Part shown: one piece after another, positions 4,788-58,671 of the stretch | Layout of the letters: each line of letters opens with the position of its first letter | How positions within the stretch are numbered: the first letter of the stretch is position 1 | Assembly: GCF_963921235.1 (NCBI RefSeq) | Contig: NC_086097.1 | Location: 67,086,001-67,150,000 of the forward strand | Direction of reading: 5' to 3' | DNA length: 64,000 bases | Source: Mobula hypostoma | Taxonomy: Eukaryota | The notes under the pieces: generated by a model | Told to the model about the DNA's origin: nothing | Seen by the model: the letters and a program-made list of their open reading frames with translations, nothing else | Databases searched by the model: none | Position numbers and translations under genes: made by a program

Positions 4788-4899
4788 GTATGTATTTTTA
4801 AAAATAATTTGTGTAGATTTTGTTAAGGCTTGTATATATTGCCAAACGTTACATCAGTATTGAAGATGGGTATTAACATTCATCCTTTATCTCACTCAG

Positions 4900-11170: not shown

Positions 11171-12274
11171 AGAGTTTGTAGCCGTCTTTGCCCTTTTTTT
11201 AATTAGAATATTTTACAATGATTTTTTGCTGACTTGCATTGAGCTGACTCACCAATATTCTGTTATTAAACCCAGGCTAGGCCTATTCATTTTGTGCAAC
11301 AATGAATAGTCTATCATAGCTATCATTGACAAATTTGCTTATGGTAAGATTTAGTATTAATCTTTCATAGTCCCCACTTCATCAAAGAATTCTCCAATCA
11401 TCGTGCTGAATTTGTCTTGCCTGGTTACTCATTTACTCAGGATGCAGTGTTAATTTTATTGATCCTGCCCACATTGCACTAGGTAGTAAGGTCTTTGTAA
11501 ATGGGTCTTGTATTCTTGGCTGCTGAGGCATTGTTCCTGGAAAAATTTGAAAGCTGAACTGAAAAAATAATTTGCAAAGTGAATTAATATTTGTGAAATG
11601 TGTGACCTGTGTAAAAGTGAACAAGTATTTATTAGCTGTACTAAACTAAATTGTAAACCGAGAATACTCTTTGAAGTCAGAAGGATCTCTGATCAGAAAG
11701 ATGATAGTGACAGCTTAAAACTGAGAATTCCCAGCAAGATTGATCTGTTATGGAGTAGTGAAGTGTTGTGACAGATATGGCACCATCTTATCACTAAGGC
11801 GAGGACTAATGTGTTCTACCCTGTCTTAAAGAAGAGACACGAAGTTTCAAAGACTAACAGTAAAGTTTCTCATCAGAATTGCTCACTCCAGTCCAGCAGG
11901 ATTCACCCCCAATGTTTTAAATAAAAGGATCAGTGCTAGAATCCTTGATGGTGATGTATATTAACCATTTGGAGGATAAGGAGTAAATTAATGGATGGTA
12001 AAGAAACTTGTCTAAGGCTACAGTAGGATTTAGATCAGATGGAAACTTGGATGAAGCATTGCAGAGGAAAAATACTGAATTGTGGAGGCACTCATGAATG
12101 TTGATTGGAGTTCATTCATTGTTCCTTGAAAGTGGCAGCACAGGTAAATGGGTGGTGAAAAAGGCATATAGCGTGTTTACTTTAATTAGGTGGGACATAG
12201 AATACATAGATTGGCACATTAGATTGTGGAGTATTAGGTTCATTTCTGTTTGTCACAGGAAGAATTGAAAGACA

Positions 12275-12990
12275 TTCTGCAGATGTAGAAACACAAAACA
12301 ATATGTACAAAATGCTTTAGAAATTCAGCTGGTCAGGTAGCATCTGTGGAAATGAACAAACAGTAGATGTTTCGGGAAGAGAACCTTCAGGACTGGAAAG
12401 ATAGGGTAGGGTAAGATTACAGAATAAAAAGGTGAAGGGAGGGGAAGGGTAGCTAGAAAGTGATGGGTGAAGCCAACTGGATGGGAAGGGTAAAGGGCTG
12501 GAGATGAAGGATTCTGATATAAGAGTTGAGTGGACCATTGGAGAAAGGAGAGGGGGAGGGAATTTTTTTAAATATTGGAATGAGAACTCAATATTCATGC
12601 CTTCAGGTTGGAGTATTCTATAGTATGCAAATCTGCTGGAGTCTAAGGCAGCAATAGTTGGCCTGTGAATCTACTGGGATTGTGTATTGTATTCAGTGCT
12701 CCCGATGTGGACTCCTACGTTGGTGAGACCTGTCATGAATTGAGGGACTGCTTCATTGAGCATATCTGCTCTGTCTGCCAAAAGTGCAACTTCCTGTTTA
12801 ATTCTGATTCCCATTCCCATACCAACATGTTGGGCCATAACCTTTCTTTCTGGCACAATGAGGCTATCCTCAAGAGTGGAGGAGTAACATTATATTCTGT
12901 CTGGGTAGCTTTCAATCTAATGGTATGAATATCGATTTCTCCTTCCAGTTAAAATAAAAATTTCACTCCCCATTACTCCCTAACCCATTC
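12275..12990. mobile_element. Old Penelope-like element with inverted arms (minus pLTR + plus GIY-YIG fragment)
   Basis: 12275-12620 is a diverged reverse copy of the pLTR and ORF end. 12665-12940 encodes YVGETCHELRDCFIEHICSVCQK...HSHT on +. Confidence 0.7.
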
Positions 12991-17229: not shown

Positions 17230-17740
17230 TAAAAACATAAAATACTGCATAACACTTTGCAGGGCAATAGTATCTGAAGAAAGAGAAACAGTTGATCTTT
17301 GAGGTCTTGGATCTTTCATCAGATCTGCAAGCTTCAGGGGCATCTCCTCATCTTCTGTTTGACTATGTTGAAGTATGCAAGGCGCAATATCAAATTCTGA
17401 TTTCTATGTGTATCAGAAGGGGGCCAATTTTGCCTACCATTATTTTGGTCCTGCTTCTTTTGATATTCCAGTATGCTGGGCATGTCCCACAGTCTTACAT
17501 TAGCATTACATTACATAGACAAAGAACTTTAGCTGATATTGACTGTCTCATTAGGTCATTGGTGTTTCTCTATCAGAGACATTCCTATTGTTGCATTCAG
17601 CTCCATTCCCCACCTTCTCTGCTATATAATCTAACTTGTTTTCTCTTTCAAATCTGATTAATGATCCTTGACCTGCAATATTAACTATTTCTCTTTCCAA
17701 AGATACTGTCTGACTGCTATTTTCTTTTTTTTAATTTCAA
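17230..17740. mobile_element. Old non-coding element with inverted pLTR-like arms
   Basis: 17230-17330 and 17650-17740 are degenerate reverse complements of each other. Each has a decayed CTGATGA-like hammerhead core and resembles the Penelope pLTR. Confidence 0.45.
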
Positions 17741-21770: not shown

Positions 21771-21875
21771 TTTATAATAATGAACCCCTAGACTGGGGAA
21801 ACACACAGACACAGCACAGTAGTCAAACTCTCAGGAAGGGAATTTGTTGTCCAAATAAAAATAATAAAAAACAAG

Positions 21876-24270: not shown

Positions 24271-25431
24271 TGTGTACAGTTGTAGCAGTGGATCAGATAC
24301 CCAATATGTTGACTCCACTTGTTCTTTTTACTGATCTCCAAGGTTCCGAGCATGTCCGGTTGAACCTCTCAGGCTGGGGATCACCCTTCAGGTGATAAGA
24401 CATAGTCCTCGACTTCTTGACTCCAAGCATGCTCAGTAACTCGTGTATGAGCCTACTCCCGAAATCCTGTCCCTGATCGCTACGTATCCGCCTGGGGAGA
24501 CCATAATTAACAAAATACTTGTCCCATAACACTTTGGCCATGGTGGCGGCCTTCTGATCCTTGGTACGGAAGGCTTGCACATATCTGGTGTAATGATCCG
24601 TAATAACCAAGATGTTCGCTGTATTGCTAGCATCAGCCTCTATTGATAGGAAATCCATACATACCAGATCAAGTAGTCCTGCACTCTGGAAGTGGGATAA
24701 CAGTGTGGCCCTCGTAGGCAGTGTCTTCCTCTGTATACATCGAATGCATGATGTTTCATTCGGGGCCAGTAGAACCGATCTCTGACCAATCCTTAAGTCT
24801 TGTCAAACCCCAAATGACCAGAATCATCATGAAGTGACTTCAACACAATCCTCTGATACTTCTCAGGCAGAACCAGCTGGGCAGGCCGAGCCCAGTCTGG
24901 AGGCAACGTGACCCGATATAGGATCTGGTTCCTCAACTCCATTCTGGGCCATTCTCTCAGTAGTAGAGACAGTGCAGAGTGTTTCATCTTGTCTGCATGG
25001 GCCACGTCCCCTTTCACAACCGCTGACCAAACGGTACCTATGCACAGGTCATCTTGCTGAGCAACTGCCACTTCCCAGGACTCAATTCAGGCCACTGCTT
25101 TGTTTTCCGAGCAGTCAAGTTGCAGTAATCTTGTAGAATGGTGCCATCAGAAGCTCCCAAATGATCTACCGATCGATTCCTCTGCCTTCCTCATGATGGA
25201 AAACTGGCACATTACTTTGACTCCAGGGACAGGAATGCTCTCCCACTCTCTGTCCCTGTCCAGCCCTTCATGTGCACATTGGGACAACACATTGGTGTCA
25301 GTGTTCTGACTCCCTGACCGGTACTTCAGTTTGAAATCATAGGCAGACAACGCTGCTAACCACCGATGTCCTGTGGCATCCAATTTCACCGAGGTCAGGA
25401 TATAAGTTAATGGGTTGTTGTCCATCCTCAC

Positions 25432-30941: not shown

Positions 30942-30960
30942 ATCCGGGACGATACCCCCA
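30942..30960 (-). promoter_or_regulatory. Primer-binding site, tRNA-Pro-like
   Basis: Minus strand TGGGGGTATCGTCCCGGAT lies 3 nt after the 5' LTR end (..TTTCA) and is similar to the tRNA-Pro PBS TGGGGGCTCGTCCGGGAT. Confidence 0.7.
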
Positions 30961-30963
30961 TAG

Positions 30964-31549
30964 TGAAACCCCGATTTCCTTGGGCTGCATAAGTCTAGGT
31001 AACACACACTTTGGTCTCACCAGATCTGTGAGATTGGGATGGCTGTCCCACCCCAAACCCCGGTTTGTGTGGATGCTGTGTAATTTGCTACCCTGTCACA
31101 ACTCAGTGTCAAGAAATAACAGACAGCGCACTGCATATGATTAAGGGAATTATATTTATGAATGTTAGCCTAACTAAAAGGTTAGTAACGAACAGAAAGA
31201 AAAAAACAAAAGAGATCCACCATAACTAAACAGTCATATGTGCACAAGGTGGAGCTGAAATCTTCCAAAAGTCATATTCACCGATGCTCAGTAGGTTTCC
31301 ACACCTTGCTCCGTTGAATCACGGTCCCCCACCAGGTCGAATCCTATGACCGGTTCTCTCCAGCGTCTTTTCTCTTCATCTCCCACCGAACAAAGACCCC
31401 AGCTCACCCCAGTGTCAGGCACACAAAAAGAACCTGTTCCGATTGGATGGCTCACATTCCAAAGCACCCATTATCTCTAACCATAACCAAACACTGCTTC
31501 TACAGAAAGACCATTACGTTAGCAGTGAAAACTTTACCAGGGCCTTACA
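30964..31549 (-). repeat. 5' LTR of Gypsy element
   Basis: TG...CA termini (TGAAACCCC...CCTTACA); homologous to 21876-22423. Confidence 0.9.
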
Positions 31550-34490: not shown

Positions 34491-35486
34491 AGGACCAAAT
34501 CTGCAGCAAGGGAACCAAAGTGAAGAGATGGAGAATGGGGAGGTTGGAGCACAAGCAGAGACAACTTGTAGTCAGCTTGTGAGGAAGGACAGGCAGATGT
34601 TAGAGCAAAGATGCACCCAGCTTGATGGTTTAAGATGTGTCTATTTTAATGCAAGGAGTATCATAGACAAGGCAGATGAACTCAGAATGTGGATCAATAC
34701 ATGGAACTGTGACGTTGTGGCCATTACAGAGACTTGGATGTCTCAGGAGCAGGAATGGCTGCTGAGTGCGCCAGGCTTTAGATGTTCCAAAAAGAAAAGA
34801 GGGGGGAGGCATTGCTAATCAGGGATAGTGTCACAACTGCAGAAAAGGAGGAAGTCATGGAGGGATTATGTACTGAGTCAGTGTGGGCGGAAGTCAGAAA
34901 CAGGAAGGGGCAATAACTCTACTGGATGTTTTTTATAGACTCCCCAATAGTAACAGGGATATCGAGGAGCAGATAGGGAGGCAGATTCTGGAATGGTGCA
35001 ATAATAATAGGGTTGTTGTGATGGGAGATTCTACTTTTCCTAATATTGATTGGCATCTCCTTCGTGCAAGGGGTTTAGATGGGGTGGAGTTTGTTAGGTG
35101 TGTTCAGGAAGGTTTCTTGACTCAATATGTAGATAAGCCAACTAGAGGAGAGACTGTACTTGATCCAGTATTGGGAAATGAACCTGGTCAGGTGTCAGAT
35201 CTCTCGGTGGAAGAGCATTTTGGAGGTACTGACCACAACTCTATTTCCTTCACCATAGCACTGGAGAGGGATAGGAGCAGACAATTTGGGAAAACATATA
35301 ATTGGGGTAGGGGGAAATATGATGCTATTAGGCAGGAACTTGGGAGCATAAATTAGGAGCAGATGTTTTCAGGGAAATGCATAGCAGAAATATGGCAAAT
35401 GTTCAGGGAACATTTGCCTGGAGTTCTGCATAGGTATGTTCCATTGAGGCAGGGAAAGGATGGTAGAGTTAAAAAACCATTGTGTA

Positions 35487-36465
35487 GAGTGCCCTCCTGC
35501 TTCAAATTATCCACCATTGTCCCTGTACCAAAAAAGACCAAGGTAACATGCCTGAACGACTGGTGTCCTGTTGCACTCACCTCAAAAATAAGCAAATGCT
35601 TTGAGTGGCTGGTCAAGGATTACATCTGCAGCTTGCTATCATTCAAACTGGACCCCCTACAATTCACGTACTGACACTGAGCAACAGCCACTGCTCTACA
35701 TACCATCCTTACATATCTAGAGAAGAAGGATGCTTATGTGAGAATGCTGTTCTTGGACTACAGTTCAGCTTTCAACACCATAGTCCCATCCAGGCACCAG
35801 TTGTGTGGTGAAAAAGGCTCTTTCACCTCAGATGTTTGAGGGAGTTTGGTATGACCATAAGACCATAAGACAAAGGAGCAGAAGCCGGCCATTCGGCCCA
35901 TCGAGTCTGCTCCGCCATTTTATCATGAGCTGATCCATTCTCCCATTCAGTCCCACTCCCCCGCCTTCTCACTATAACCTTTGATGCCCTGGCTACTCAG
36001 ATACCTATGGGTCCCAAGTCCTAAGAACTTTCTACAGAGGCACAATTGAGAGCATCCTAACTGGCTGCATCACTGCCTGGTATGGGAACTGTTCCTCCCT
36101 TGATCGCAGGATTCTGCAGAGAGTGGTGTTGACAGCCCAGCGCATCTGTAGTGGTGAACTTCCCACCATTCAGGACATTTACAAGGACAAGTGTGTAAAA
36201 AGGGCCCATAGGATCATTGGGGACCCAAGTCACCCCAACCACAATCTATTCTAGCTGCTATCATCCGGGAAGCAGTACTGCAGCATAAAAGCCAGGACCA
36301 AGAGGCTCCGGGACAGCTTCTTCCACCAGGCCATCAGACTGATTAATTCACACTGATTTGAGTGTACTCTATATTACATTGACTGTTCTAGAGATGTAAC
36401 GTAAAGATTTTACTCCTCATATATGTGAAGGATGTAAGAAATAAAGTTAATTCAATTCAGTTCAA
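35487..36465 (+). mobile_element. Internally deleted Rex1/Babar LINE nested in CR1
   Basis: [32 protein letters not shown]...LDPLQF and [22 protein letters not shown] + (TTCAA)n tail. Its 3' part is nearly the same as 44615-45042. Confidence 0.85.
35854..36005 (-). mobile_element. CR1-type 3' tail fragment nested in the Rex element
   Basis: (ACCATAAG)2 tail followed by GGCCATTCGGCCC (CR1 3' stem); TSD TATG at 35850-35853 / 36006-36009. Confidence 0.7.
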
Positions 36466-36904
36466 TACAAAGTATGTAGAAAATCTAACTAAGAAAAGAA
36501 AAGCTTACAAAATGTTCAAGAAACTAGGTACTGTTAGAGCTTTAGAAAACTACAAGGTTGCTAGGAAGGAGTTTAAGAATGGAATTAGGAGAGCCAGAAG
36601 GGGCCATGAGAAGGCCTTGGTGAGCAGGATTAAGGAAAGCCCCAAGGCATTCTACAAGTATGTGAAGAGCAAGAGGATGAGCCGTGTGAGAATAGGACCA
36701 ATCAGATGCGATACTGGAAACGTGTGCGTGGAGTCAGAGGAGGTAGCAGAGGTACTTAATGAATACTTTGCTTCAGTATTCACCAGGGAAAAAGACCTTG
36801 CCAATGGAGGGGATGACTTACAGTGGACTGAAACGCTTGAGCATATAGACATTAAGAAAGAGGATGTGCTGGAGCTTTTGAAAAGCATTAAGTTAAATAA
36901 GTCA

Positions 36905-37188
36905 AACAACAGGAATTCTGCAGATGCTGGAAATTCAAGCAACACACATCAAAGTTGCTGGTGAACGCAGCAGGCCAGACAGCATCTCTAGGAAGAGGTA
37001 CAGTCGACGTTTCAGGCTGAGACCCTTCGTCAGGACTAACTGAAGGAAGAGTTAGTAAGAGATTTGAAAGTGGGAGGGGGAGTTCGTCCTGGTGAAGGGT
37101 CTCGGCCTGAAACGTCGACTGTACCTCTTCCTAGAGGTGCTGCCTGGCCTGCTGCGTTCACCAGCAACTTTGATGTGTGTTGCTTAAA
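36905..37188. mobile_element. ORF-less palindromic Penelope-pLTR element
   Basis: Two inverted pLTR arms; TSD TTAAATAAGTCA at 36893-36904 / 37189-37200. Removing it restores CR1 IKLNKSPGLD. Confidence 0.88.
37002..37037 (-). ncRNA. Minimal type I hammerhead ribozyme motif (intact core)
   Basis: rc = AGTC CTGACGA AGGGTCTCAGCCT GAAAC GTC GACT. Confidence 0.75.
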
Positions 37189-38754
37189 TTAAATAAGTCA
37201 CCAGGATTGGATGAGATATACCCCAGGCTACTGTGGGAAGCAAGAGAGGAGATTGTTGAGCCTCTTGCAATGATCTTTGTGCCATCAATAGGGACAGGAG
37301 AAGTATTGGAGGATTGGAGGGTTGCAAATGTTGTTCCCTTGTTCAAGAAAGGAAGTAGAGATAACCCAGGAAATTATAGACCAGTGAGTCTGATTTCAGT
37401 GGTGGGCAAGTTGTTGGAGAAGATCCTGGGAGGCAGGATTTATAAGCATTTGGAGAGACATAATCTGATTAGGGATAATCAGCATAGCTTTGTCAAGGGC
37501 AAGTCGTGCCTTACAAACGTGATTGAATTCCCTGAGGATGTAGCAAAACACATTGATGAAGGTAGAGTAGTGGATGTAGTGTGTATGGATTTCAATAAGG
37601 CATTTGATAAGGTTCTCCATGTAAGGTTCCTTTAGAAAGTAAGGAGGCATTGAATCCAAGGAGACCTTGTTTTGTGGATCCCGAACTGGCTTGCCCACAT
37701 AAGGCAAAGGGTGGTTGTAGATGGTTCGTATTCTGCATGGAGGTTGGTGACCAGTGGTGTTCTGCAGGGATCTGTTCTGGGACCCCTCCTCTTCGTGATT
37801 TTTATAAATGACTTGGATGAAGAAGTAGAATGGTGGGTTAGTAAGTTTGCTGATGACAGGAAGTTTGGGGGTGTTGTGGATAGTCTAGAGGGTTGTCAGA
37901 GGTTACAGCGGGACATGGATAGAATGCAGAGCTGGGCTGAGAAATGGCAGAAGGAGTCCAACCCAGGTAAGTGTGAAGTGGTTCATTTTGGTAGGTACAA
38001 TTTGAAGGCAGAATATAATAAAAATGGTAAGACACTTGGTACTGTGGAGGATGTGAGAGATCTTGGGATCCATGTCAATAGGACACTCAAAGCTGCTGCG
38101 CAGGTTGACAGCGTTGTTAAGAAGGCATATGGTGTGTTGGCATTCATCAGCTGTGGGATTGAGTTCAAGAGCCTTGAGGTAATGTTACAGATATATAAGA
38201 CCTTCGTTAGACCCCACTTGGAGTAGTGTTCGGTTCTGGTCACCTCACTACAGGAAGGTTGTGGATTCTATAGAGAGAGTGCAGAGGAGATTTACAAGGA
38301 TGTTGCCTGGATTGGAGGGTGTACCTTATGAGAATAGGTTCAGTGCACTTGCCCTTTTCTCCTTGGAGCGACAGAGGATGAGAGCTGACCCGATAGAGGC
38401 GTAAAAAATGATGAGAAGCATTGATCGTGTGGATAGCCAGAGGCTTTTTCCCGTGGTTGAAATGGCTAACACAAGGGGGCATAGTTTCAAGGTACTTGGA
38501 AATAGGTACCAAGGGGTAGGTTTTTCACACAGAGAGTGGTGGGTGCATGGAATGTACCACTGGCGGTGGTGGTGGAAGTGGATACAAAAGGGTCTTTTAA
38601 GAGCCTCTTAGATAGGTACATGGAGCTTAGAAAAATAGAGGGCTATGCACTAGGGAAATTCTAGGCAGTTTCCAGAGTAGGTAATATGGTTGGCACAACA
38701 TTGTGGGCCGAAGGGCCTGTAATGTGCTGTAGATTTCTATGTTCTATGTTTTAA

Positions 38755-39000
38755 GTCAATATTCATGCTATCAGGTTGGAAGGTACCCAGACAGAATATA
38801 GGGTGTTGCTCCTCCACCCTGATGGTGGCCATTTGTGGTGGATAGTACGGATGTGATCGATAAAGCGGTCCCCCAATTCAGATGGGTCTCACCAATGTGG
38901 TGAAGGCTGCATTGGGAGCACCAAACACAATAGATGGCCCCAGCAGGATCACAGGTGAAGTGCTGTCTTAACTGGAAGGACAGTCTGGGGCACTGAATGG
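38755..39000 (-). mobile_element. Penelope-like GIY-YIG fragment
   Basis: SFQLRQHFTCDPAGAIYCVWCSQCSLHHIGETH in ORF 38771-39175. Confidence 0.75.
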
Positions 39001-39809
39001 AAACACCCAGCATCTTCAGACTTCCACGTGTTTGAGTTTTATATCCAGGCTTAATGGAAATGAGAAAGGCCAAAGGTGAAGAGATCTGGAGAGGCATGAG
39101 ACAGTCAACCATGCAAACATTTTTCAGATAGTAAGGGTGGAGTTTGCCATCTTTTACAGGCAAAGCTGCAGACAAGTTGCAAAAAGGATGAGGTTCTGGA
39201 TACCAGAATTACAATGGATATCGTTTGTGATTTTGATGAAGCACATTTCAGTACTGTTCAGGGTGGAATGCTGACTTATTAGTTTCAGAGGTCCTGAAAG
39301 GGTGGGCATGAATCTGGGAGATAGACAATGAAGAGAAGAGAAAAAGTGGAGATGGATTGGTTGTTTGAAAAGCCAGATGAGCTAATGTCAGTTTTTTTTT
39401 AAAAAGAGGGAGGTGATGCATCCATTAAGTCCGCTCAGCCAGTCAATAAAATCATGACCTCAACTCCACTTACCTTTACAGTCCAAATATCTACCTATTT
39501 CAGCCTTGAATTTATTCAGTGATTTAGATCCCACAATGATATTGGGAAGAAAATTCTGAATATTCATGACCAGCTAAGAGATAAAAATCATTCTCATGTA
39601 TTTTAAATAGGTGGCCCCTTAATCCTAGACAGTATATTTTTGTTCTGTATTCCCACTATCATCTCAGCATCTATCATACTAAGCCCATTCTGAATCTTAC
39701 GTGTTTCAATAAAATTAACTCTGGTTCTTAAAAATTGCAAGTTTAATCATTCTTTATTATAAAACCCCACTAATCAGCACTACCCACTGCAGTTGTAGTC
39801 TGCTTCCCA

Positions 39810-40667: not shown

Positions 40668-42900
40668 TGTGTTAGTGCACAACTACATGTCAATTAAATA
40701 AAAATATGCATACGGGAGATTGCTTTAACTGGTGATTTCACATTGCAATGAGAGAGAGAACCATGCGCCTGTGCAGACAACAGATCAACTTGTAGTGCTA
40801 AAAGGGGTGGGTCATCGCTCTCAATGAAACAGATCCATACATCACACTTCCTCCCCCCTTAGATTAATACAACATAAAACTGTTATGTACAAAACATTAA
40901 ACTTCCCTTTCATAAAACCCATATTCCACATAACCATGCTTTCACAATGACAGTCCATAACCGACTTCACAGTTCTAAAGATTCTGTATTTTGGGTGGTG
41001 CTCTGCTTCTTTCAGGATAGCACCTCTGGACCTGGGGAGTGGCATCAGGTTTGGTAGGTGTCTTGTCTAAAACAACGTTCTCCGTTTCCAGTGTCACATT
41101 GCTCTCATTGACATGATTATCACTGAGAGGTAAGTCCAGTGACTGTAATGTGTCCGTCTTGTTGGATGTGGTCGACTCAGGTGTGCTCTTCAATTGCGCA
41201 TCCAGGGTCTGGTCCACATAATGTCTGCATGTCTGATCTCTAACATCCACTGCAGTCCATTTCTTATAGCTATCCTACCAGGTGTCCACTTGTCTTCTCG
41301 GTAATCACGAAGACTTAGAGTTCAATCTCGAAGCTCCTCACTGTTTCACTTGGCAACTGGCTGATCTGTTTATTTAGTACTTCCCTCCAGAGATCTGGTT
41401 TCAGGAGGTCTTTGCAGGATCTCAGATTCCTGCTCATGAACAGCATTGCAGGTGTTTGATTTGTCGTTGCATGAACCGAGTTCTGATATACAAAAAGGAA
41501 AGTGTCCATATTGTGCTGTAGAGAAATGTCCTCCTTGTCCATCCCTTTAATGGACTTCTTGAAGGTTTGGATAAATCTTTCAGCTAACCCATTCATTTCT
41601 GGGTAGTGAGGAGCTGACTTGAAATGTCTGATGCCATTTTTCTTTATGAACAGTCAGAATTCTTCTGACGTGTATTGTGGCCCATTGTCACTCATGGTTT
41701 GTTCTGGTAAGCCATTTCTGGTGAAGATGCAAACACAAGGAATTCTGCAGATTCAAGCAACACACATCAAAGTTGCTGGTGAATGCAGTAGCATCTCTAG
41801 GAAGAGGTACAGGCCGAGACCTTTCGTCAGGACTAACTGACGGAAGAGCTAGTAAGAGATTTGAAAGTGGGAGGGGGAGTGGGAGATCCAAAATGATAGG
41901 AGAAGACAGGAGGGGGAGGGATGGAGCCAAGAGCTGGACAGGTGATTGGCAAAATGGATATGAGAGGATCATGGGACAGGAGGCCCAGGGAGAAGGAAAA
42001 GATAGTCCTCAGGGCAGAGACAGACTTTGTTGAGATGGTTGACTTCATTGGTTTAACCTCCGGCCACTTCGAATGAACATCCACACCAATCAGAAACATG
42101 GAGTCCATGAATGGTCCAGCAAAGTCAATATGTACTCTTTTCCATGGCGATGACAGCCAATCCCACCACTGTAACGTTGCCTGTGGAGGTGTACTGTGAA
42201 CTTTTTGGCATCCCGTACAGCTTTTGGCCACCTTCAATTTGTTTATCTATTCCCACCCACCACACATAGCTTTGGATGAGACTCTTCTTCTTGATTGTAC
42301 CCAGGTGTCCTTCATGCATATTTTCTAATGCTCTTGTGTGCAGTTTAGAGGGAACTAAAACCTGAGATCCACACATCAGCGTTTTTTGGTCTTGTCTCGT
42401 TGAAAACTGTAGGAACATAGGGTTACCATGAGCTGTCCATCCTTGCATGATGATGTCATAGACTTTGGACAAAGTTGGGTTACTCTTTGTTTCTCTTTGT
42501 ATTTAAGAATTTGTTACCGGAAACTGGTCCACCAGTGCTGTGTGGAACACTTCTGCTGGGTCACAGTATGAAGACATTTCTTCTTCAGTTGCCAGCAGTG
42601 GAAGATGTGACAAGCCATCAGCATTGCTGTGTTGTTTGGTACCCTTGATTTCTATGTTATAAGTGTGGGCTCCTAGGAATAGTGCCTAGCATTGTAACTG
42701 GGTAGTCGTCATCACTGGAATTCCCTTCCTCGGATTGAAAATGGACACAAGGGGCTGGTGGTCTGTCACTAGTGTACACTTCTGTCTGTAGAGGTAGTGG
42801 TGGAACTTCTTTATTCCTTGTACTAGACTAAGGGCCTCTTGGTCAATCTGTGCATAGAGGCGTTCTGCGCTTGTCAGCGATCTTGAAGCAAACTCAATCA
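40668..42900 (-). mobile_element. 5'-truncated Gypsy element (RH-IN + PPT + short 3' LTR)
   Basis: FASRSLTSAERLYAQIDQEAL...TDHQPL, HEGHLG...YVWW, PWKRVHIDFAGP, NGLAERFIQTFK. PPT AAGGGGGGAGGAAG (40847-40860) is followed by TGTGATG; putative LTR 40668-40846 (TGTG...CACA). Confidence 0.85.
41729..41998 (-). mobile_element. Penelope pLTR fragment nested in Gypsy integrase (hammerhead partly deleted)
   Basis: Matches the pLTR at 50255-50500 plus the tail; TSD AAGAT at 41724-41728 / 41999-42003. Removing it restores SALRTIFTRNGLPEQ. Confidence 0.85.
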
Positions 42901-43589
42901 GGCAAAACACCAACACTTTTTGGTCTTCATCATTTAAACATTTCTTTGCTAAAGTGAGTAAACTCCTATTTTTCCATCTTATAGCCCATCTCTCATGTCC
43001 TCACCCTTTCACTTTGCTTGTCCGTATTCTCACAACACGCACATCAAGAAACTTGCCTATATTACATAATCAAACAGCAAAAAATTGCAAATATTGGAAA
43101 TATGAAATTAAAATAGAAAATGATGGAAATACTCAACAGGTCAGGTAGCATCTCTGGAGGGAGAAACAAATTACACATCAGGTTAATGGCCTTTGATCAG
43201 AAGCAGAAAAAGTTAGAAATCAACTGCGTTTTTCTGTTACAGAGAAAGGAGAGAAATACAGAAAACAACAGGAATATTTGTGAATGTTTGGCAATCTAAA
43301 GAGATTGAATGACAAAGGATTGAAAGAATGTGCTGAAAGCTTATTAATTGCAGATGGTTAGCCTGGGGAAATTACAAGAAAAATTAAACGACTGAGGGCA
43401 GAGGAGAGAAAATAAATATGCTAGAACCATGAAAATCAAGTCATTGCTACTACTAAAGATCTGAAATAATGGAAATGAAGATACTCAGAGACCAGGCACA
43501 TAAAACCTATATTTCTTTTTTTTTTCCTTTTCTGACTAATTTGAGGTATAGATTTATGTTTACATGTTCTCTCCCTTCTTGCCATTCTT

Positions 43590-46359: not shown

Positions 46360-47860
46360 TTATGGATCATTCAGAGAAGGTATGATCTGTACAAAATGGA
46401 TAGGTTACACTTGAACCTGAGGGGGATGAATATCCTTGGGGACAGGTTTACTAGAGCTGTTGGGGATTGATAAGTTAGTTTGGCAGGGCAATAGAAACCA
46501 GAGTAATAGGTCAGAGGATGGGACATTTGCTATACAGGTAAATGTGATGTGTATAGAGACTGTGAGGAACAATAAATTGTAGTCAGTAGGATGGATTAAA
46601 GTTTGTCTATTTTGATGCAGCAGGTATCAGGAACAAGGGTGATGAACTTAGATCAAGGGTCAGTACATGGTAGGATGATAATGTGGCCATTACAGAGGCT
46701 GTCACAAGGGAAGGAAAAGTGGCTAGATGTCCTGGATTTAGATAGTTCAAAAAGGACAGGGAGGGAGGTAAAAGAAGTGAAGCAATGGCATTGCTATTCA
46801 GGGATAGTATCACAAGTGCAGAGAGGGAGGTTGTCATCGAGGGATTGTCTACTGAGTCAGTATGTGTGATAGTCAGAAACAGGAAGGGAGCAATCACTCT
46901 GTTAGGAGTATTCTGTAGATCCCCCAATCACAACAGAAACACCGAGGAACAAATCAGGAGGCCGATTTTCGAAAGGTGCAAAAATAACAGGGTTGTTGTC
47001 ATGGAAGACTTCAACTTCCCTAATATTGTTTGGCACTTCCTCAATGCAAAAGGTTTAGAGGAGCGGAATTTGTTAGGGGTGTCCAGGAAGGATTTCTGAC
47101 ACAATATGTACATGATCTGACTAGAGGAGTGGCCATACTGGATCTGGAGCTAGGTAATGCACCAGGTCAGGTGCCAGATCTCTCAGTGGGTGAACATTGT
47201 GGAGACATTGACCACAACTCCCTGACCATTATCATAACCTTGGACAGGGACAGAGCAGATGGTATGAGAAAGTATTTAATTGTGGGAGGGGGAATTATGG
47301 TTCTACTAGGCAGGAACTTGGAAGCATAAATTGGAAATGGATGTACTCATGGAAATGCACAACAGAAATGTGGAAGTTGTTTCGGGAGCATTTGCATGGG
47401 GTTCTGGATTGGTTTGTCTCATTGAGGTAGAGGAAAGATGGTAGGGTGAAGGAAACATGGTTGACAAGAGATGTGGAACATCTAGTCAAAAGGTAGAAAG
47501 CAGCTTACTTAAGGTTTAGGCAGCAAGGATCAGTCAGGGGTTTGCAGAATTACAAGATAGCCATGAAGGAGCTGAAGAATGGACTTAGGAGAGGGAGAAG
47601 GCGGCATGAGAAAGCCTTGGCAAATAGAATTACAGAAAACTTCTAGACATTATATCAATATGTAAAGAACAGAAGGATGACTAAAGTGAGGATTAGACCG
47701 ATTAGAGATAGAAGAGGAAACATATTGCCTAGAATCAGAGGAGGTCCTTAATGGATATTTTGTTTCAATATTCACCAAAGAGAGGAACCTGGACGTTTGT
47801 GAAAGCAGTGCAAAACAGATACTTTTGAAAAACGTCTAGAGAGGTAAGCCCCTGGGGCTG
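46360..47860 (+). mobile_element. CR1 LINE (ORF1 end + ORF2 endonuclease), decayed
   Basis: ALLFRDSITSAEREVVIEGLSTESVCVIVRNRKGAITLLGVFCRSPN...VVMEDFNFPNI; colinear with 34500-36850. Confidence 0.85.
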
Positions 47861-48469
47861 GATGGTCTGCTTCTGCCATTTTTATCATGGATTAATGACC
47901 ACGGTCAACAGCCTTTTGTTTAAGTCCAGCTTCTGGCACAGTGATCAATAAGGGGAAAGTTATGACATCATCACAGTTTAGGCAAAACCTGACTCTCTGC
48001 CTGAAGATACATAAAGTGGGACAGCGAAATCTTGGTTGGGCCATGGGCTAGAGAAATGCGGCCAAGACCATTTGAAAGTGCAGGTTCTGAACTTTACTCC
48101 ATTAAACCCTAATTCACAGGAATTGTGTCATTGCGTGATTAGAGTATGAGAATTGTACAAGCTAATTTTGTAGTACAGAAGTGAATGGCAATAATGTGCC
48201 AAAGATTACATGATTTCTTCAGATTTCTCATGATACGCCAAATACAAAAGTGTCACATTGCTTTTCAACAATTATAACATGCTTCAAGCAACGTCTAAGA
48301 GAATGGTGGGTGAGCAAGAAATAAGGTGATTACCTGATCGTTGTAATCAATTATGAAGCACCTCGGATCAACTGCTTATAATATGTAATTAAATTAAGTC
48401 TGTAATCCCTCAGCTGCCTCCCTTGCTACCAAGTGCCCCTCGGCCCCCTTTATTTTTATCGCCATATAG

Positions 48470-49290
48470 ATAGCTTAGATTACAATGGGATTCTGACAGA
48501 ATGCAGAGCTGGGCTAAGAAGTGATAGATGGTGTTCAACCTGGAAAAGTGTGAAGTGATTAACTTTGGAAGGTTGAATACGAAGGCAAGACACAGGGTTA
48601 AAGGCAGGATTCTTAGCAGCAAGGAGGAAAGAAGAATCCTGGAGTCCTCATCCACAGATCCTTCAAAGTTTCTGCACAAGTTGATAGAGTTGTTAAGAAG
48701 ACGCGTGGTGGGTTGGCCTTCGTTAGTCGGGGGATTGAGTTCAGGAGCTGCGTGGTAATGTTGCAGTTCTATAAAACCCAGGTTAGACCACACTTGGAAT
48801 ATTATGTTCAGTTCTGGTCACCTCATTTATGGAAGGATGTGGAAGTTTTAAAGAAGGTGCAGAAGAGATTTTGCAGGATGCTGTCTGGATTAGAGAGCTC
48901 TTAGGACGACAGGTTGAGTGAGCTAGGACTTTTCTCTTCGGAGGGAAGGAGGATGAGAGGTGACTAGATGAAGGTGTCACATACAAAATGCTGGGTGTAC
49001 AAGATGATAAGGATTGAGTGGATAGCCAGGGTGGAAATGACTAACACGAGGGGCATAATTTTAAGGTGATTGGAAGGTAGGGGGAATCAGAAGTAAGTTT
49101 TTTGTTACACAGAAATTGGTGGGTGCATAGAAACCCTGTCGGGAGTGGTGGTCGAGACATAAGGGAAGATAGGAAAAAATGCAAGGCTATGTAAGAGGGA
49201 AGAATTAGACTAAACAGAGTAGGTTAAAAAGCCTGCACACCATCGCGGGCCGAAGAGCCAGCATTGTACCGTAGTGCTTTATGTTCGTTG
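48470..49290 (+). mobile_element. CR1 LINE 3' fragment abutting the SNX6 promoter
   Basis: FNLEKCEVINFGR and RPHLEYYVQFWSPH; 3' GGGCCGAAGAGCC tail at ~49247. Confidence 0.85.
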
Positions 49291-49754: not shown

Positions 49755-50314
49755 GTAAGTTTTTGCCGTTCTCAGTTTCTGGTTCTCCAGTCCTGGGCCC
49801 TCAATAGGGCCGTAAAGGGGATTTTAAATCACGTTCCACCCTATCCTAGTTACTGTCTCGATAGGTGAACTTGCCTCGTGCCAATTGCAACTGTGCACGA
49901 ATTATATCCCGTTAAACAAGGTTAAATGTCTATTATGTTTTGGATCGCCGTTGGCACGATATTGTAAGGTGAATTTCATATTTTTATTCTTAGAATTGAT
50001 TCAGGCTTATAGCTACCAAATTTGCTTCTAATTTTGAAAAGAAAATCAAGAAAACGAAATGCAAATTGTATTGTTTTCCTTGTCTTTAGTAAGCTTCATA
50101 TTTTGGGAGAAGCCTCTGTCTTTGCACCTACTTCAACTGAGTTTTAAATGGATTCAAATGTAACCACAAAGGATAAACTGAAGCATTACTTGCACAGCTT
50201 CTGACAGCTGTTGCAGTTAATGGGATTCTCACCTCTGAGTAAAAAGGTTGTGTAACACACATAAAAGTTGCTGGTGAATGCAGCAGGCGAGGCAGCATCT
50301 CTAGGAAGAGGTAC

Positions 50315-50350
50315 AGTCGACGTTTCAGGCCGAGACCCTTCGTCAGGACT
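50315..50350 (-). ncRNA. Minimal type I hammerhead ribozyme motif (intact core)
   Basis: rc = AGTC CTGACGA AGGGTCTCGGCCT GAAAC GTC GACT. Confidence 0.78.
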
Positions 50351-50641
50351 AACTGAAGGAAGAGTGAGTAAGGGATTTGAAAGTTGGAGGGGGAGATCCA
50401 AGATGATAGGACAAGATGGGGGGGGGGGGGATAGAGCCAAGAGCTGGACAGGTGATAGGCAAAAGGGGATACGAGAGGATCATGGGACAGGAGGTCCGGG
50501 AAGAAAGACAAGGTGGGGGGGGGAACCCAGAGGATGGGCAAGAGGTATATTCAGAGGGGCAGAGGGAGAAAAAGGAGAGTGAGAGAAAGAATGTGTGCAT
50601 AAAAATAAGTAACAGATGGGGTACGAGGGGGAGGTGGGGCC

Positions 50642-52357
50642 TTAGCTGAAGTTAGAGAAGTCGATGTTCATGCCATCAGGTTGGAGGCTACCCAGACGGA
50701 ATATAAGGTGTTGTTCCTCCAACCTGAGTGTGGCTTCATCTTTACAGTAGAGGAGGCCGTGGATAGACATGTCAGAATGGGAATGGGATGTGGAATTAAA
50801 ATGTGTGGCCACTGGGAGATCCTGCTTTCTCTGGCGGACAGAGCATAGATGTTCAGCAAAGCGGTCTCCCAGTCTGCGTCGGGTCTCGCCAATATATAAA
50901 AGGCCACATCGGGAGCACCGGACGCAGTATATCACCCCAGTCAACTCACAGGTGAAGTGTTGCCTCACCTGGAAGGACTGTTTGGGGCCCTGAATGGTGG
51001 TAAGGGAGGAAGTGTAAGGGCATGTGTAGCACTTGTTCTGCTTACACAGGTAAGTGCCAGGAGGGAGATCAGTGGGGAGGGATGGGGGGGACGAATGGAC
51101 AAGGGAGTTGCGTAGGGAGCGATCCCTGCGGAATGCAGGGGGGGGGGAGGGAAAGATGTGCTTAGTGGTGGGATCCCGTTGGAGGTGGCGGAAGTTACGG
51201 AGAATAATATGTTGGACCCGGAGGCTGGTGGGGTGGTAGGTGAGGACCGGGGAACCCTATTCCTAGTGGGGTGGCGGGAGGATGGAGTGAGAGCAGATGT
51301 ACGTGAAATGGGGGAGATGCGTTTAAGAGCAGAGTTGATAGTGGAGGAAGGGAAGCCCCTTTCTTTAAAAAAGGAAGACATCTCCCTCGTCCTAGAATGA
51401 AAAGCCTCATCCTGAGAGCAGATGCGGCGGAGATGGAGGAATTGCAAGAAGGGGATGGCGTTTTTGCAAGAGACAGGGTGAGAAGAGGAATAGTCCAGAT
51501 AGCTGTGAGAGTCAGTAGGCTTATAGTAGACATCAGTGGATAAGCTGTCTCCAGAGACAGAGACAGAAAGATCTAGAAAGGGGAGGGAGGTGTCGGAAAT
51601 GGACCAGGTAAACTTGAGGGCAGGGTGAAAGTTGGAGGCAAAGTTAATAAAGTCAACGAGTTCTGCATGCATGCAGGAAGCAACGCCAATGCAGTCGTCG
51701 ATGTAGCGAAGGAAAAGTGGGGGACAGATACCAGAATAGGTACGGAACATAGATTGTTCCACAAACCCAACAAAAAGGCAGGCATAGCTAGGACCCATAC
51801 AGGTGCCCATAGCTACACCTTTAGTTTGGAGGAAGTGGGAGGAGCCAAAGGAGAAATTATTAAGAGTAAGGACTAATTCCGCTAGACGGAGCGGAGTGGT
51901 GGTAGAGGGGAACTGATTAGGTCTGGAATTCAAAAAGAAACGTAGAGCTTTGAGACCTTCCTGATGGGGGATGGAAGTATATAAGGACTGGACATCCATG
52001 GTGAAAATAAAGCGGTGGGGGCCAGGGAACTTAAAGTCATCGAAAAGTTTAAGAGTGTGAGAAGTGTCATGAACATAGGTAGGAAGGGATTGAACAAGGG
52101 GGGATAAAACCATGTCGAGGTATGCAGAAATGAGTTCGGTGGGGCAGGAGCAAGCTGAGACAATAGGTCGGCCAGGACAGGCAGGTTTGTGGATCTTGGG
52201 TAGGAGGTAGAAACGGGAAGTGCGGGGTGTGGGAGCTATAAGGTTGGTAGCAGTGGATGGGAGATCCCCTGAGCGGTGATGGTGTGGGAGACAATGGCCT
52301 GGTGCTCCTTAGTGGGGTCATGATCGAGGGGTAAATAAGAGGAGGTATCTGCGAGAG
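50642..52357 (-). pseudogene. Penelope-like RT/GIY-YIG ORF, lightly disrupted
   Basis: ORFs 50965-52113 (RT) and 50642-50968 (GIY-YIG). A 1-nt deletion near 51250 relative to the copy at ~57630 (RVPLVLTYH) shifts the frame; the N-terminus is broken or truncated. Confidence 0.85.
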
Positions 52358-52518
52358 TTCTTCCCGGACCTCCTGTCCCATGATCCTCTCGTATCCCCTT
52401 TTGTCTATCACCTGTCCAGCTCTTGGCTCTATCCCTCCCCCTCCTGTCTTCTCCTATCATTTTGGATCTCCCCTTCCCCCTCCAACTTTCAAATCCCTTA
52501 CTCACTCTTCCTTCAGTT

Positions 52519-52554
52519 AGTCCTGACGAAGGGTCTCGGCCTGAAACGTCGACT
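52519..52554 (+). ncRNA. Minimal type I hammerhead ribozyme motif (intact core, sense to SNX6)
   Basis: AGTC CTGACGA AGGGTCTCGGCCT GAAAC GTC^GACT; predicted cleavage at 52550/52551. Confidence 0.78.
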
Positions 52555-52729
52555 GCACCTCTTCCTACAGATGCTACCTGGCCTGCTGCGTTCACCAGCA
52601 ACTTTGATGTGTGTTACTTGAATTTCCAGCATCTGCAGAATTCCTGTTGTTTGCGTTTTTTAAAAAAAAGGTTGTGTAGTTTTTTTTTCTACTTGAAAAA
52701 TGAAACACCTGTAAGACGGTGCTGTCTTT

Positions 52730-53635: not shown

Positions 53636-54590
53636 TAAGGTTCAAAGTAAATTTGTTCTCAAAGTACATGTACGTTACCTTATGTTAGTCCTGACGAAGG
53701 GTCTCGGCCTGAAACGTCAACTGTACCTCTCCCTAGAGATGCTGCCTGGCCTGCTGCGTTCACCAACAACTTTTATGTGTGTTGCCTGTATGTTACCTTA
53801 TGCTACCTTGAGTTTAATTTTTGGCAGGTGTTTATAAGAAGAATAGAAATGCAATAGAATCCATGAAAAAAAACATACATAAGCAAAGACTGACAACCAA
53901 TTTGCAAAAGGAAACAAAATGAGCAAAAAAAAAGTCAAGAACATGAGTTGTAAAGAGTCCTTAAGTGAGTCTGTAGTTTGTAGAATCAGTTCAGAGTTGT
54001 GGTGAGTGACATTATCCACTCTAATTAAGGAACCTGATGATTGTAGGTTAATAATTGTGCGAAACTGGTGGTGTGGGACTACTGACTTCTGTACTTCCTG
54101 CCCAATCGTAACATTGAGAAGGGAGTATGGCCTGAATGGTGGGGATCTATGCTATGCAAATCTATGCAAACTTCTGAGGAAGTAGATGGTGCTGTCATGC
54201 CACCTTTGTGATGGTACTTGCGTGCTGGTCCCAGGATAGGTAATCTGATAATACTAGTTGCAAGGAGTTTAAAGCTTCTGCCCTTCTCCACCCCCAATCC
54301 CTTAATGAGGAAGGACCTCCAGCTTCTTCCTCTTGTAATCGATCTTTGATTTTGACATTGAGGGAGAGGTTGTAATTGTGGCACTATTCAAACAGATTTT
54401 CAGTCTCCCTCCTATATGCTGATTCATCAGCATCTTTGATTTCGTTAACAACTTTGGTGTCTTAGCTACATGATCATAGGTATAAAGTGAGTAGAGCAGG
54501 GGCTAAACACACAGTTGTGTAGTGCACTTATACTGATGGTGAGTGTGGAGGAGATTTTGCTAATCCAAACTAACCAGGGTCTGCCAGTTG
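53636..54590 (-). mobile_element. Old Rex1/Babar-type LINE fragment
   Basis: GVEKGRSFKLL...IDPHHSGHTPFSMLRLGRKYRS; AAATTTACTTTGAACCTT tail on minus. Confidence 0.65.
53685..53786 (+). mobile_element. 102-bp Penelope pLTR mini-insertion: hammerhead motif (53687-53722) plus downstream pLTR
   Basis: 16-bp TSD TGTACGTTACCTTATG / TGTATGTTACCTTATG at 53669-53684 / 53787-53802. The core CTGACGA...GAAACGTC is intact; one stem I mismatch. Confidence 0.85.
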
Positions 54591-56500: not shown

Positions 56501-57578
56501 TAAAATAGCATTTTTGTCATACAGATATGTTTTTAAAGTACACCTTCAATTATAAGGAAACAGATCAACTAATTTATAGAAAACATAGTTGCAAAAGTAA
56601 ACAGAAAATGTTTGTGCTATTTGTCAAGACTGTTGAATAGGCTACTTTATTTGTGTATTCAGCATAACTATTTATTATTATTGGCATTGTTTAATTAATC
56701 CCAAAGAGTCAAAGAATGCAAGTATAAACTTGTTGAGGTTTTGGAGGCATTCTTGTATGGAAAGTTTCATAGAGTAGTTATGCCAGAAGTGTAAATAATT
56801 CAGATGATTTAATGGTGGAGTAGAAGTTTTCTGTAGGATAATAATCAGGATTTGGATTATCCTGTTGATCTGTAGAGTTACGATTTTGTTACTTTCTCAT
56901 ACTTTCTGCAGAAAGTGGATTGTTCCTTTGTAACAATTTTTGTGATAACTTTTGTATTTGTGAATGATGGGATACTTTCTCAATGCAATGAAGCTGATAG
57001 TTAATGTGGGTTTTCAGTAGATGCTCTTCTCCTTGTGTGTGAATAATATGTTCAATAAAAAAGGTAATTAACACAGAAGTAATCATCAAAAACTTTTTCA
57101 CTCGCTGCATAGAGTAAGAGGAGTTGTGAACCTTCCAGGAAAAACACGACTCCTTTTGAATTTGGTTATTAGGTTGTTAATAAAGTTCCTCCCCTTATGA
57201 ATGCCAGACTTGTGTATAGTCTGTACATATGAATCAGTGCGTGGGAACTATTCGGTCTGGATTTGCCAGCTGCTGTGCTGCTGCAGGCATCTGCCATGTA
57301 AGAACTCAGTTCGTGGTTGCATTTCCAACATGCAAACTATTCAACCTTGCCATATCCTTGGAAGACCTGTACTACTGGTTTTGTGTTGTTGAATTAAGAT
57401 GGGATGGATATAGTGATTGCTATTTGTGAAAGAACATTTTACCATGCAACATAGTTTGCTTTATGTGACTTTTTTTTTTGCAATGGTGAAATTCATGTTT
57501 TCCCATTCCTTCCAGCAGTTTTATTTTGCCGTGCCATCCAAATACTTGTCTTTGGTATAAAATTAGAATGCATAATTT

Positions 57579-58671
57579 CACGCACATCTGCTCTCACTCC
57601 ATTGTCCCGCCACCCCACTAGGAATAGGGTTCCCCTTGTCCTCACCTACCACCACACCAGCCTCTGGGCCCAACATATTATTCTCTGTAACTTCTGCCAC
57701 CTCCAACAGGATCCCACCACTAAACACATCTTTCCCTCCTCCCCCCCCCCCGCTTTCCGCAGGGATTGCTCCCTACGCGACTCCCTTGTCCATTCGTCCC
57801 CCCCATTCCTCCCCACCGATCTCCCTCTTGGCACTTAACCTTGCAAGTGGAACAAGTGCTACACATGCCCTTACACTTCCTCCCTTACCACCATTCAGGG
57901 CCCCAGACAGTCCTTCCAGGTGAGGCGACACTTCACCTGTGAGTTGGCTGGGGTGATATACTGCGTCCGGTGCTCCCGATGTGGCCTATTTATTGGCCAG
58001 ATCCAGCAGACTGGGAGATCATTTCGCTGAGCACCTACGCTCTGTCTGCCAGAGAAAGCAGGATCTCCCAGTGGCCACACATTTTAATTCCACGTCCCAT
58101 TCCCATTCTGATATGTCTATCCATGGCCTCCTCTACTGTAAAGTTGAAGCCACACTCGGGTTAGAGGAACAACACCTTGTATTCTGTCTGGGTAGCCTCC
58201 AACCTGATGGCATGAACATTGACTTCTCAAACTTCCACTAATGCCCCGCCTCCCCCTCGTACCCCATCCGTTATTTATTTATTTATATACACACATTCTT
58301 TTTCTCTCTCTTGTTTTTCTCCCTCTGTCCCTCTCACTATACCCCTTGCCTATCCTCTGGGTTTTCCCCCCTCCCCCTTTTTCTTTCTCCCTAGGCCTCC
58401 TGTCCCATGATCCTCTCATATCCCTTTTTGCCAATCACCTGTCCAGCTCTTGGCTCTATCCCTCCCCCTCCTGTCTTCTCCTATCATTTTGGATCTCCCT
58501 CTCCCCCTCCAACTTTCAAATCTCTTACTAGCTCTTCCTTCAATTCGTCCTGACGAAGGGTCTCGGCCCGAATCGTTGACTGTACCTCTTCCTAGAGATG
58601 CTGCCTGGCCTGCTGCATTCACCAGCAACTTTTTGTGTTGCTTGAATTTCCAGCATCTGCAGATTTCCTCG
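57579..58671 (+). mobile_element. 5'-truncated Penelope-like element (GIY-YIG + pLTR; hammerhead mutated at 58546-58581)
   Basis: Close reverse complement of 50255-51310; 14-bp TSD AGAATGCATAATTT at 57565-57578 / 58672-58685. Confidence 0.92.

Follow-up and report, generated by a model that had tools for sequence, protein, structure and literature searches.

A head-to-head pair of truncated Penelope-like elements carrying minimal, loop-less hammerhead motifs in the Mobula hypostoma genome

Within the window, by which we mean the whole 64-kb stretch of Mobula hypostoma DNA that was analysed, positions 50255-52664 are best explained as a dead insertion in which two 5'-truncated copies of a Penelope-like element (PLE) lie head-to-head inside a 14-bp target-site duplication (TSD). 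Each copy carries a minimal hammerhead motif, a likely weak ribozyme that would cut as a protein-assisted dimer in transcripts of the rarer tandem source copies, a role suggested by analogy with related elements. We put the probability of this joint explanation, the hammerhead role included, at roughly 80%.

A single insertion of two truncated copies

Sequence comparison places the bounds of the 2.4-kb segment exactly between two copies of the same 14 bases (50241-50254 and 52665-52678), so we regard it as a single insertion. Within it, a minus-strand copy (52357 to 50255) and a plus-strand copy (52358 to ~52660) are joined at their truncated 5' ends. What the sequence-only reading had called terminal repeats is really the second, inverted, 5'-truncated copy of the element. 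The features of the insertion are as follows.

50241..50254, plus strand: left TSD, 14 bp, the same 14 bases as at 52665-52678
50255..52357, minus strand: left copy, a 5'-truncated Penelope-like element with the tail absent (alignment to the intact copy L079)
50255..50641, minus strand: 3' untranslated region, or pseudo-LTR (pLTR), of the left copy (sequence comparison)
50315..50350, minus strand: minimal hammerhead motif, sense to the open reading frame (ORF); predicted cut between 50319 and 50318, from hammerhead numbering
50642..51256, minus strand: ORF with a C-x4-C-x2-C linker and a GIY-YIG endonuclease that has the CCHH residues (domain match E 4.8e-5, passing the cut-off; motifs from the translation)
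50965..52308, minus strand: ORF with a reverse transcriptase (RT) core, out of frame past ~51248 (RVT_1 E 1.7e-5, below the Pfam curated cut-off)
52358..52664, plus strand: right copy, a 3' end of the element in inverted orientation with its 5' part missing, plus tail (92.7% identical to the left copy over 260 bp)
52519..52554, plus strand: minimal hammerhead motif, 36 nt, identical to 50315-50350 on the minus strand
52570..52617, plus strand: second conserved block, downstream of the ribozyme and reaching to the first of two clusters of 3' ends (old/young subfamily comparison and 3'-end clusters); likely an RT-initiation region, by analogy with Frangieh et al. 2024
52618..52657, plus strand: right-copy segment directly 3' of the second conserved block (3'-end and locus comparison)
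52665..52678, plus strand: right TSD, 14 bp (sequence identity to 50241-50254)

Aligned to L079, the left copy shows 59 mismatches over 2101 aligned bases and deletions of 10, 1 and 6 bp near 52276, 51248 and 50395, respectively. The first 1.4 kb of its ORF is missing, and its RT and GIY-YIG pieces lie in different frames. The tail of the right copy is ~40 bp long. The two hammerheads face outward on opposite strands and therefore cannot both act, or pair with each other, in one transcript.

The element resembles Neptune-type Penelope-like elements

The intact copy L079 contains an open frame of 1041 codons in which RVT_1 spans 533-695 and GIY-YIG spans 944-1014, each narrowly missing its Pfam curated cut-off. 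This arrangement of a single ORF with an RT followed by a C-terminal GIY-YIG is that of an endonuclease-bearing (EN+) PLE. A protein search returned 492 relatives at E<=1e-30, and the same domain set is found in most of the best 120 of these 492. The most identical named relatives among the matches listed are bamboo-shark proteins (68-71%), which fits a cartilaginous-fish host.

The C-x4-C-x2-C motif precedes the GIY-YIG domain and a CxxC...H...H pattern lies inside it, and this combination of linker and CCHH residues places the element with Neptune/Nematis, not with Penelope/Poseidon. Only Neptune and Poseidon are reported in the vertebrate sample of Li et al. 2026, in the accessible part of that work. 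Elimination thus points to Neptune rather than Nematis, an assignment made from motifs and this sample.

The layout, too, is that of a PLE: pLTRs arise from partial tandems, an inverted 5'-truncated neighbour is present and a tail of 30-40 bp is optional. Recognition of the insertion as Penelope-like by the sequence-only reading is thus borne out by both the protein domains and the architecture. As far as the accessible text of Craig et al. 2021 (PMC8557442) goes, the element matches Neptune-type EN+ PLEs in its single ORF with RT and C-terminal GIY-YIG, its CX2-5CxxC linker and CCHH residues, and its partial tandems, inverted 5'-truncated neighbour and one-end 30-40 bp tail. It differs from them in its insertion sites, which are AT-rich in the cases seen here and not (TA)n microsatellites.

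Six loci, picked from 30 for their long 5' extension, were examined. L081 is a direct pLTR-ORF-pLTR copy with two sense motifs 3548 nt apart, such that the motif lies in the pLTR and occurs twice in sense, the location described for minimal hammerheads. L079 and L080 have a tandem unit of ~3.51 kb, and the open frame starts ~55 nt after the cut site. By hand count over the first 100 matches listed, 14 neighbouring motif pairs lie within 4 kb, 11 of them facing outward, 2 inward and 1 on the same strand.

A minimal hammerhead motif with a bulged A before stem II

The 36-mer is the same letter for letter at 52519-52554 (plus) and 50315-50350 (minus), as had been seen from the letters of the window. 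Its core likewise supports the proposed assignment as a minimal type I hammerhead whose stem III is palindromic and has no loop, combining CUGANGA, GAAA and UH with a palindromic 15.2-16.2 and the absence of loop 3. In the plus-strand motif, stem I pairs 52519-22 with 52551-54 and continues with a U-G at 52518/52555 (4 bp plus U-G); the core comprises CUGACGA (52523-29), a bulged A (52530), GAA (52543-45), ACGU (52546-49) and C17 (52550); and stem II pairs 52531-34 with 52539-42 (GGGU/GCCU, 4 bp). Stem III is the palindrome ACGU with no loop. Because no loop separates C15.2 from G16.2, a monomeric stem III would be sterically impossible, and the 'obligate dimer' of the sequence-only reading is something we infer from this geometry.

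The AGG/CCU register (AGG/CCT in DNA) originally given for stem II does not stand. The energy difference between the registers is small when taken alone. Cross-family pairing is more informative: over the first four positions in 30 loci, a register with a 1-nt bulge pairs in 101 of 120 cells versus 34 for a 0-nt and 41 for a 2-nt bulge, in a count for which C11.1 was fixed by the search pattern. A G directly follows the bulge in 24 of these 30 other-family loci. Cross-family pairing therefore sets the register as a bulged A with G10.1 opposite position 11.1, and the base left unpaired between positions 9 and 10.1 is the one characteristic of minimal hammerheads (min-HHRs). Position 11.1 is C in old copies and is U in 59 and C in 30 of 90 young copies. 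A G10.1-C11.1 pair is thus found in old subfamilies and in 30/90 young copies, and a G-U wobble in 59/90, including both motifs of the insertion.

Neither canonical type I hammerheads nor non-LTR retrozymes provide a match, in that loop 3 is absent, stem I is 4-5 bp where the canonical form has 6 bp with loop contacts, and the motif occupies the dispersed ends of a coding element. An Rfam scan of the window (cmscan, E up to 5) gave three weak unrelated matches and none to a hammerhead model, so it is the core sequence, together with comparison, that identifies the motif. A loose core pattern matched the window 7 times against 0.42 expected, and 4 of these 7 matches belong to this Penelope-like family.

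Other family copies in the window

Seven further sites had been named as recurrences of the motif, and all of them proved to be real family copies, ranging from a single change to decayed relics. The copies, identified by sequence comparison, are listed below.

12274..12941, strand unassigned: older-subfamily relic with an endonuclease piece and a decayed motif at 12326-12394 (minus strand, 72% identical)
17235..17330, minus strand: motif region of an older-subfamily relic at ~17300, 68% identical to an old copy in L177 over 99 columns (pairwise E 1e-7)
36893..37190, strand unassigned: second head-to-head insertion of two short 3' ends, with motifs at 37002-37037 (minus strand; 1 loop change, core intact) and 37085-37120 (plus strand; 3 changes, two within CUGANGA)
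41729..42001, minus strand: solo 3' end whose hammerhead, at ~41799-41834, has lost its 3' half to a deletion
53678..53791, plus strand: solo 3' end with the motif at 53687-53722 (core intact; G1.1>A disrupts the first stem-I pair)
57575..58669, plus strand: 5'-truncated copy including the endonuclease region, with a core-mutated motif at 58546-58581 (4 changes, one in GAAA)

The insertion at 36893-37190 lies inside a decayed LINE-type RT copy and has a 13-bp duplication with 1 mismatch.

Abundance and age of the family

The suggestion of a very large motif population is borne out genome-wide. In the 3.48-Gb genome, 59,002 sites exactly match a 28-nt core pattern that has three degenerate positions, compared with 0 for the reversed control, and the 28-nt 3' flank has 67,345 genome matches. 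Across 32 stretches of 10 kb that were not chosen by motif, we identified 48 family matches (16 at >=85% identity and 32 older), where 5 shuffled queries gave none. A rough extrapolation from these stretches, whose choice followed round coordinates or proximity to the window, gives ~500,000 family copies genome-wide, of which well over 100,000 are young.

The divergence of young copies from their own majority is ~2% at flank sites outside CpG and 3-13% at CpG sites. Dead relics make up most of the family, and the notion of a very large population of working ribozymes does not survive.

Conservation between subfamilies and decay of dispersed copies

Comparison of old and young majorities (37 and 99 copies, respectively) revealed 2/36 differences within the motif, at N7 and 11.1, versus 26/40 in the immediate flanks, a rough contrast in that truncated copies and indels inflate the flank figure. 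The expectation that the core would be better kept than its flanks across subfamilies was thus realised, and both old-to-young changes fall outside the invariant core. The second conserved block, further 3', shows 11/46 differences between the same majorities. In contigs of three organisms (X1, X5 and X9, from public runs), groups of 9-60 stop matching exactly at L079 positions 5751 and 5787. Contig ends thus stack at both motif edges, indicating that related subfamilies share the motif as an island.

A looser genome search identified other families with a loop-less GAAACGU core and an unrelated stem II (536 matches versus 126 for the control). The mean contiguous stem I in these loci is 2.1 bp, compared with a background of 0.55. 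Only 7/30 other-family loci are near a protein match to this PLE, which establishes the PLE link of those families in part.

Within the young family, genome-wide single CpG variants number 2,904 for C7U, 1,782 for G8A, 1,996 for loop C>T and 2,625 for loop G>A. The core-breaking G8A is about as common as loop C>T, which has the same TCG context, and no strong selection is therefore visible within the young family. TCG sequence context affects CpG variant frequency. We considered reading selection from these variants and rejected it, as the two lowest counts are both in TCG context and context explains them equally well. At the level of individual copies, non-CpG changes number 7/757 in the core versus 63/2,766 in the flank (p 0.018), a weak difference that is open to junction-edge effects. 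Dispersed copies decay approximately neutrally, and constraint is seen only between source lineages. That the motif is constant between subfamilies and lost about neutrally in dispersed copies points to selection on source elements only.

Folding, 3' ends and a proposed mechanism

ViennaRNA folding gave no signal relative to shuffles (z-scores -0.37 to 0.24). The 36-38-mer is predicted to fold into a hairpin that sequesters the core, pairing core GACG with CGUC (z -0.37). The hammerhead dimer is predicted at -11.5 kcal/mol versus -30.3 for an alternative duplex, and the C11.1 form at -16.7 versus -34.1, in a model that leaves core tertiary contacts outside. These energies suggest that the ribozyme would be off in naked RNA, a predicted state in line with both the weakly active dimers described in 2014 and the anole motif, whose cleavage is assisted by protein.

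Among 99 copies picked by their 3' flank, the 3' ends are bimodal: downstream of the cut, one cluster holds 53 copies (~57-76 nt) and the other 44 (~94-110 nt), and the two clusters match two RT start sites and the tail. The cut site is crossed by 94/99 of these copies, so the RNA that was copied was mostly uncut or re-joined at the ribozyme.

We propose the following mechanism. Tandem copies hold pLTR-ORF-pLTR units of ~3.5 kb, as seen in the L081 motif pair and the L079 open frame. By analogy with Forster-type dimers and with the model of Cervera and De la Pena (2014), motif A would contribute CUGACGA, stem II and GAAAC to the dimer, and motif B would contribute GUC together with the 3' stem-I strand. 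The ACGU of one motif would pair with that of the other as a 4-bp shared stem III, and the cut would fall after C17. Reverse transcription would begin ~60 or ~100 nt 3' of the cut site, where copies are observed to end, and RT would read through a ribozyme that was either uncut or re-joined. If both strands of the DNA serve for priming, two outward-facing truncated copies may then result.

Alternative readings of the motif

The motif could instead be a hammerhead derivative that does no cutting in vivo, either retained as a structure that binds protein or pauses the RT, or by now a vestige in the young subfamily. Several observations lean this way: the G10.1-U11.1 wobble together with C7 permits the GACG/CGUC mispairing of the core, 94/99 copies were copied across the cut site, and the 5' ends of 43/99 are spread over positions 154-200 around the motif. 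In the anole element, moreover, catalytic mutants were without effect on in vitro insertion and no RNA-seq reads end at the cut, according to the accessible text (PMC11167929). However, the letters of the catalytic core persist in families with stems II of unrelated sequence, and the changes from old to young at N7 and 11.1 spare the invariant core. Fungal PLE hammerheads (PMC4209133) and the anole motif (PMC11167929) also cleave in vitro, as those sources partly document. We consider a non-cutting motif unlikely, if deserving of serious attention.

Rather improbable, in our estimate, is that the motif acts as a protein-chaperoned monomer or with a trans partner rather than as a cis dimer between two pLTRs. 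The anole PLE motif was cleaved only when protein was added (PMC11167929, accessible text). Same-strand motif pairs are rare and 3.5 kb apart, and transcribed single motifs would be numerous. A monomer is opposed by the steric problem of a stem III that would lack any loop between C15.2 and G16.2, and by the reported inactivity of a single min-HHR in vitro (PMC4209133, accessible text), points with which a trans dimer is compatible.

Scarcely credible is that the insertion has true terminal inverted repeats (MITE- or DIRS-like) with the ribozymes of both arms cooperating: inverted 260-bp arms of 92.7% identity do bound it and TSDs do flank it, but this is refuted by arm lengths that vary by locus from <100 bp to >1.4 kb and take in ORF sequence, and runs against the internal join at truncated 5' ends, the tail on one arm only, the motifs on opposite strands and the description of an inverted 5'-truncated copy as typical of PLEs (Craig et al. 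2021, PMC8557442, in the part accessible).

An excess of 5' junctions at the predicted cut

A further reading is that the genome records in vivo cutting, as would be expected if some cDNAs ran off RNAs cleaved at C17. We scored 5' junctions genome-wide as three non-family bases followed by 26 family bases and found 547 at the predicted cut, compared with 199 at +1, 143 at +3 and 204 at -3, an excess of 2.7-3.8x over the three neighbouring positions. The predicted cut is the centre of a GTCGAC palindrome. In the first 42 of the 547 matches there are 41 distinct junctions, of which 13 join inverted copies through 3-5 nt of microhomology, 5 reflect deletions or tandem joins and 6 (by hand count) read CCT|GAC, a jump from the core's own GAC. 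After these exclusions 17/41 cut-site junctions remain versus 15/21 at the +1 control, a residual ratio of ~1.6 before chance spill-over. One of the 99 flank-anchored copies starts at the cut site.

The junction excess is mostly explained by microhomology and is a weak lead that we do not count as evidence. Run-off at a cleaved end is compatible with microhomology but is not required by the junction data, and a genomic record of cutting strikes us as a long shot. If true, it would amount to a genomic footprint of Penelope hammerhead activity and would mean that the G10.1-U11.1 variant still works. Such a footprint has no counterpart in the accessible parts of the literature compared.

Relation to known hammerhead-bearing elements

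There is no new design here, and what stands out is only the tens of thousands of near-identical copies in this fish genome. Dimer cleavage has reportedly been described by Lunse et al. (RNA Biol 14:1499), going by the title. What our analysis adds is the scale, a head-to-head structure that arose in one event, a correction of the stem II register together with a G-U variant in the youngest wave, and the weak junction excess. The architecture, which had been thought possibly uncharacterised, is the same loop-less palindrome with which Cervera and De la Pena (2014, PMC4209133) defined the min-HHR, using a descriptor that requires neither helix III nor loop 3, with dimerisation via the palindrome. 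The accessible parts of that study report min-HHRs in fish Xena, Poseidon and Neptune, with ~4,000 copies in coelacanth and ~9,000 in Xenopus; they find no monomer cleavage and low dimer cleavage; and they note inverted pairs, the bulge and the G10.1-C11.1 pair. No shark or skate terms were found in two of its supplement files.

Like the min-HHR so described (PMC4209133), the present motif has no helix III loop, a palindromic 15.2-16.2, a helix I of 4-5 bp and a bulge between 9 and 10.1, and it sits in a pLTR, mostly as dispersed single copies with some inverted pairs 100-700 bp apart. It differs in having a 4-bp stem II where Schistosoma min-HHR families have 7-8 bp, and in the G10.1-U11.1 of its youngest subfamily, in contrast to the conserved G-C. 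Scale also differs, with 59,002 exact copies of a near-invariant motif here and heterogeneous sets in coelacanth and Xenopus.

The anole element PAc (Poseidon_Ac; Frangieh et al. 2024, PMC11167929), as accessibly described, provides a second parallel. There, too, two RT start sites set the tail, targets are AT-rich and uncut RNA is the main template. Unlike the present element, PAc belongs to the Poseidon clade without the linker Zn finger, and its ORF starts inside the hammerhead. A third comparison is with non-LTR retrozymes (PMC7229834; bioRxiv 10.64898/2026.07.22.740005, both in part), which reach up to 120,000 canonical type I motifs in axolotl. They are similar in the very large number of type I hammerheads in a vertebrate, and a PLE origin has been proposed for them, but they form short tandem arrays that encode no protein, and their hammerheads have a looped stem III and contacts between loops 1 and 2, whereas here the motifs lie in dispersed 3' ends of a coding PLE. 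The accessible part of the 2026 preprint on tandem retrozymes (bioRxiv 10.64898/2026.07.22.740005) has one chondrichthyan sampled. Full-text literature searches, limited to the text accessible and with Repbase and Dfam outside their scope, returned no description of this particular family.

Implications

Rfam models miss the motif, and genome annotations therefore undercount it. Hammerheads of PLEs show low in vitro activity and were dispensable for insertion in the one reconstituted system, in the sources as far as accessible. With its 59,002 exact motifs, several age layers and an open full-length copy, this family constitutes a large natural test set, in which junction statistics, source-lineage selection and the effect of G10.1-U11.1 could be measured with high power.

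Repeats and genes around the Penelope insertion

The sequence in and around the head-to-head Penelope-like insertion contains a gene exon, several kinds of decayed retroelement and a conserved pLTR block:

4378-4863 (+), cofilin/ADF gene exon (Pfam E 9.4e-14)
636-708, 38753-39040 and 43071-43164, old relics of the main Penelope lineage
25500-27270, 34600-39000 and 46590-48900, several decayed LINE-type reverse transcriptase (RT) copies, 73-85% identical to one another
24293-24802, 28031-29333 (-) and 33379-33840 (+), broken open frames with pieces resembling LTR-retrotransposon protease, RT and integrase, read by eye
~21870-22310 and ~30960-31430, direct repeats
52570-52617, second conserved block of the Penelope pLTR

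The three Penelope relics were absent from the list given by the sequence-only reading. One of the LINE-type copies is split by a Penelope insertion (36893-37190). A Pfam scan of one of the LTR-retrotransposon-like frames returned no match; the direct repeats may be LTRs.

Variants and relatives of the minimal hammerhead

In an older Penelope subfamily, core position 6 appears to be C rather than A (CUGCYGA) in several copies (L097, L126, L165, L173, L182 and L212). The 30 loci recovered by a looser core search of the genome (L189-L218) include at least five further minimal hammerhead families, which share the loop-less core of the main element and have longer, unrelated stems II. The commonest among them has a stem II of 7-8 bp and a stem I of 2 bp, and no nearby protein match to the main element was found for it. 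Two of these families include outward-facing pairs (L203/L204 and L211/L212).

Truncation at the motif

The second conserved pLTR block contains a UGCUG/CAGCA hairpin and lies immediately ahead of the first 3'-end cluster, making it a candidate protein-binding or RT-start element. Across pLTR positions 154-212 (window 52511-52569), 43 of the 99 young copies selected by their 3' flank alone have a 5' end inside or just ahead of the hammerhead motif, and none of the 99 has one in the 12 bases that come next. This distribution of 5' ends thus suggests that RT stalls or microhomology joins are concentrated at the motif.
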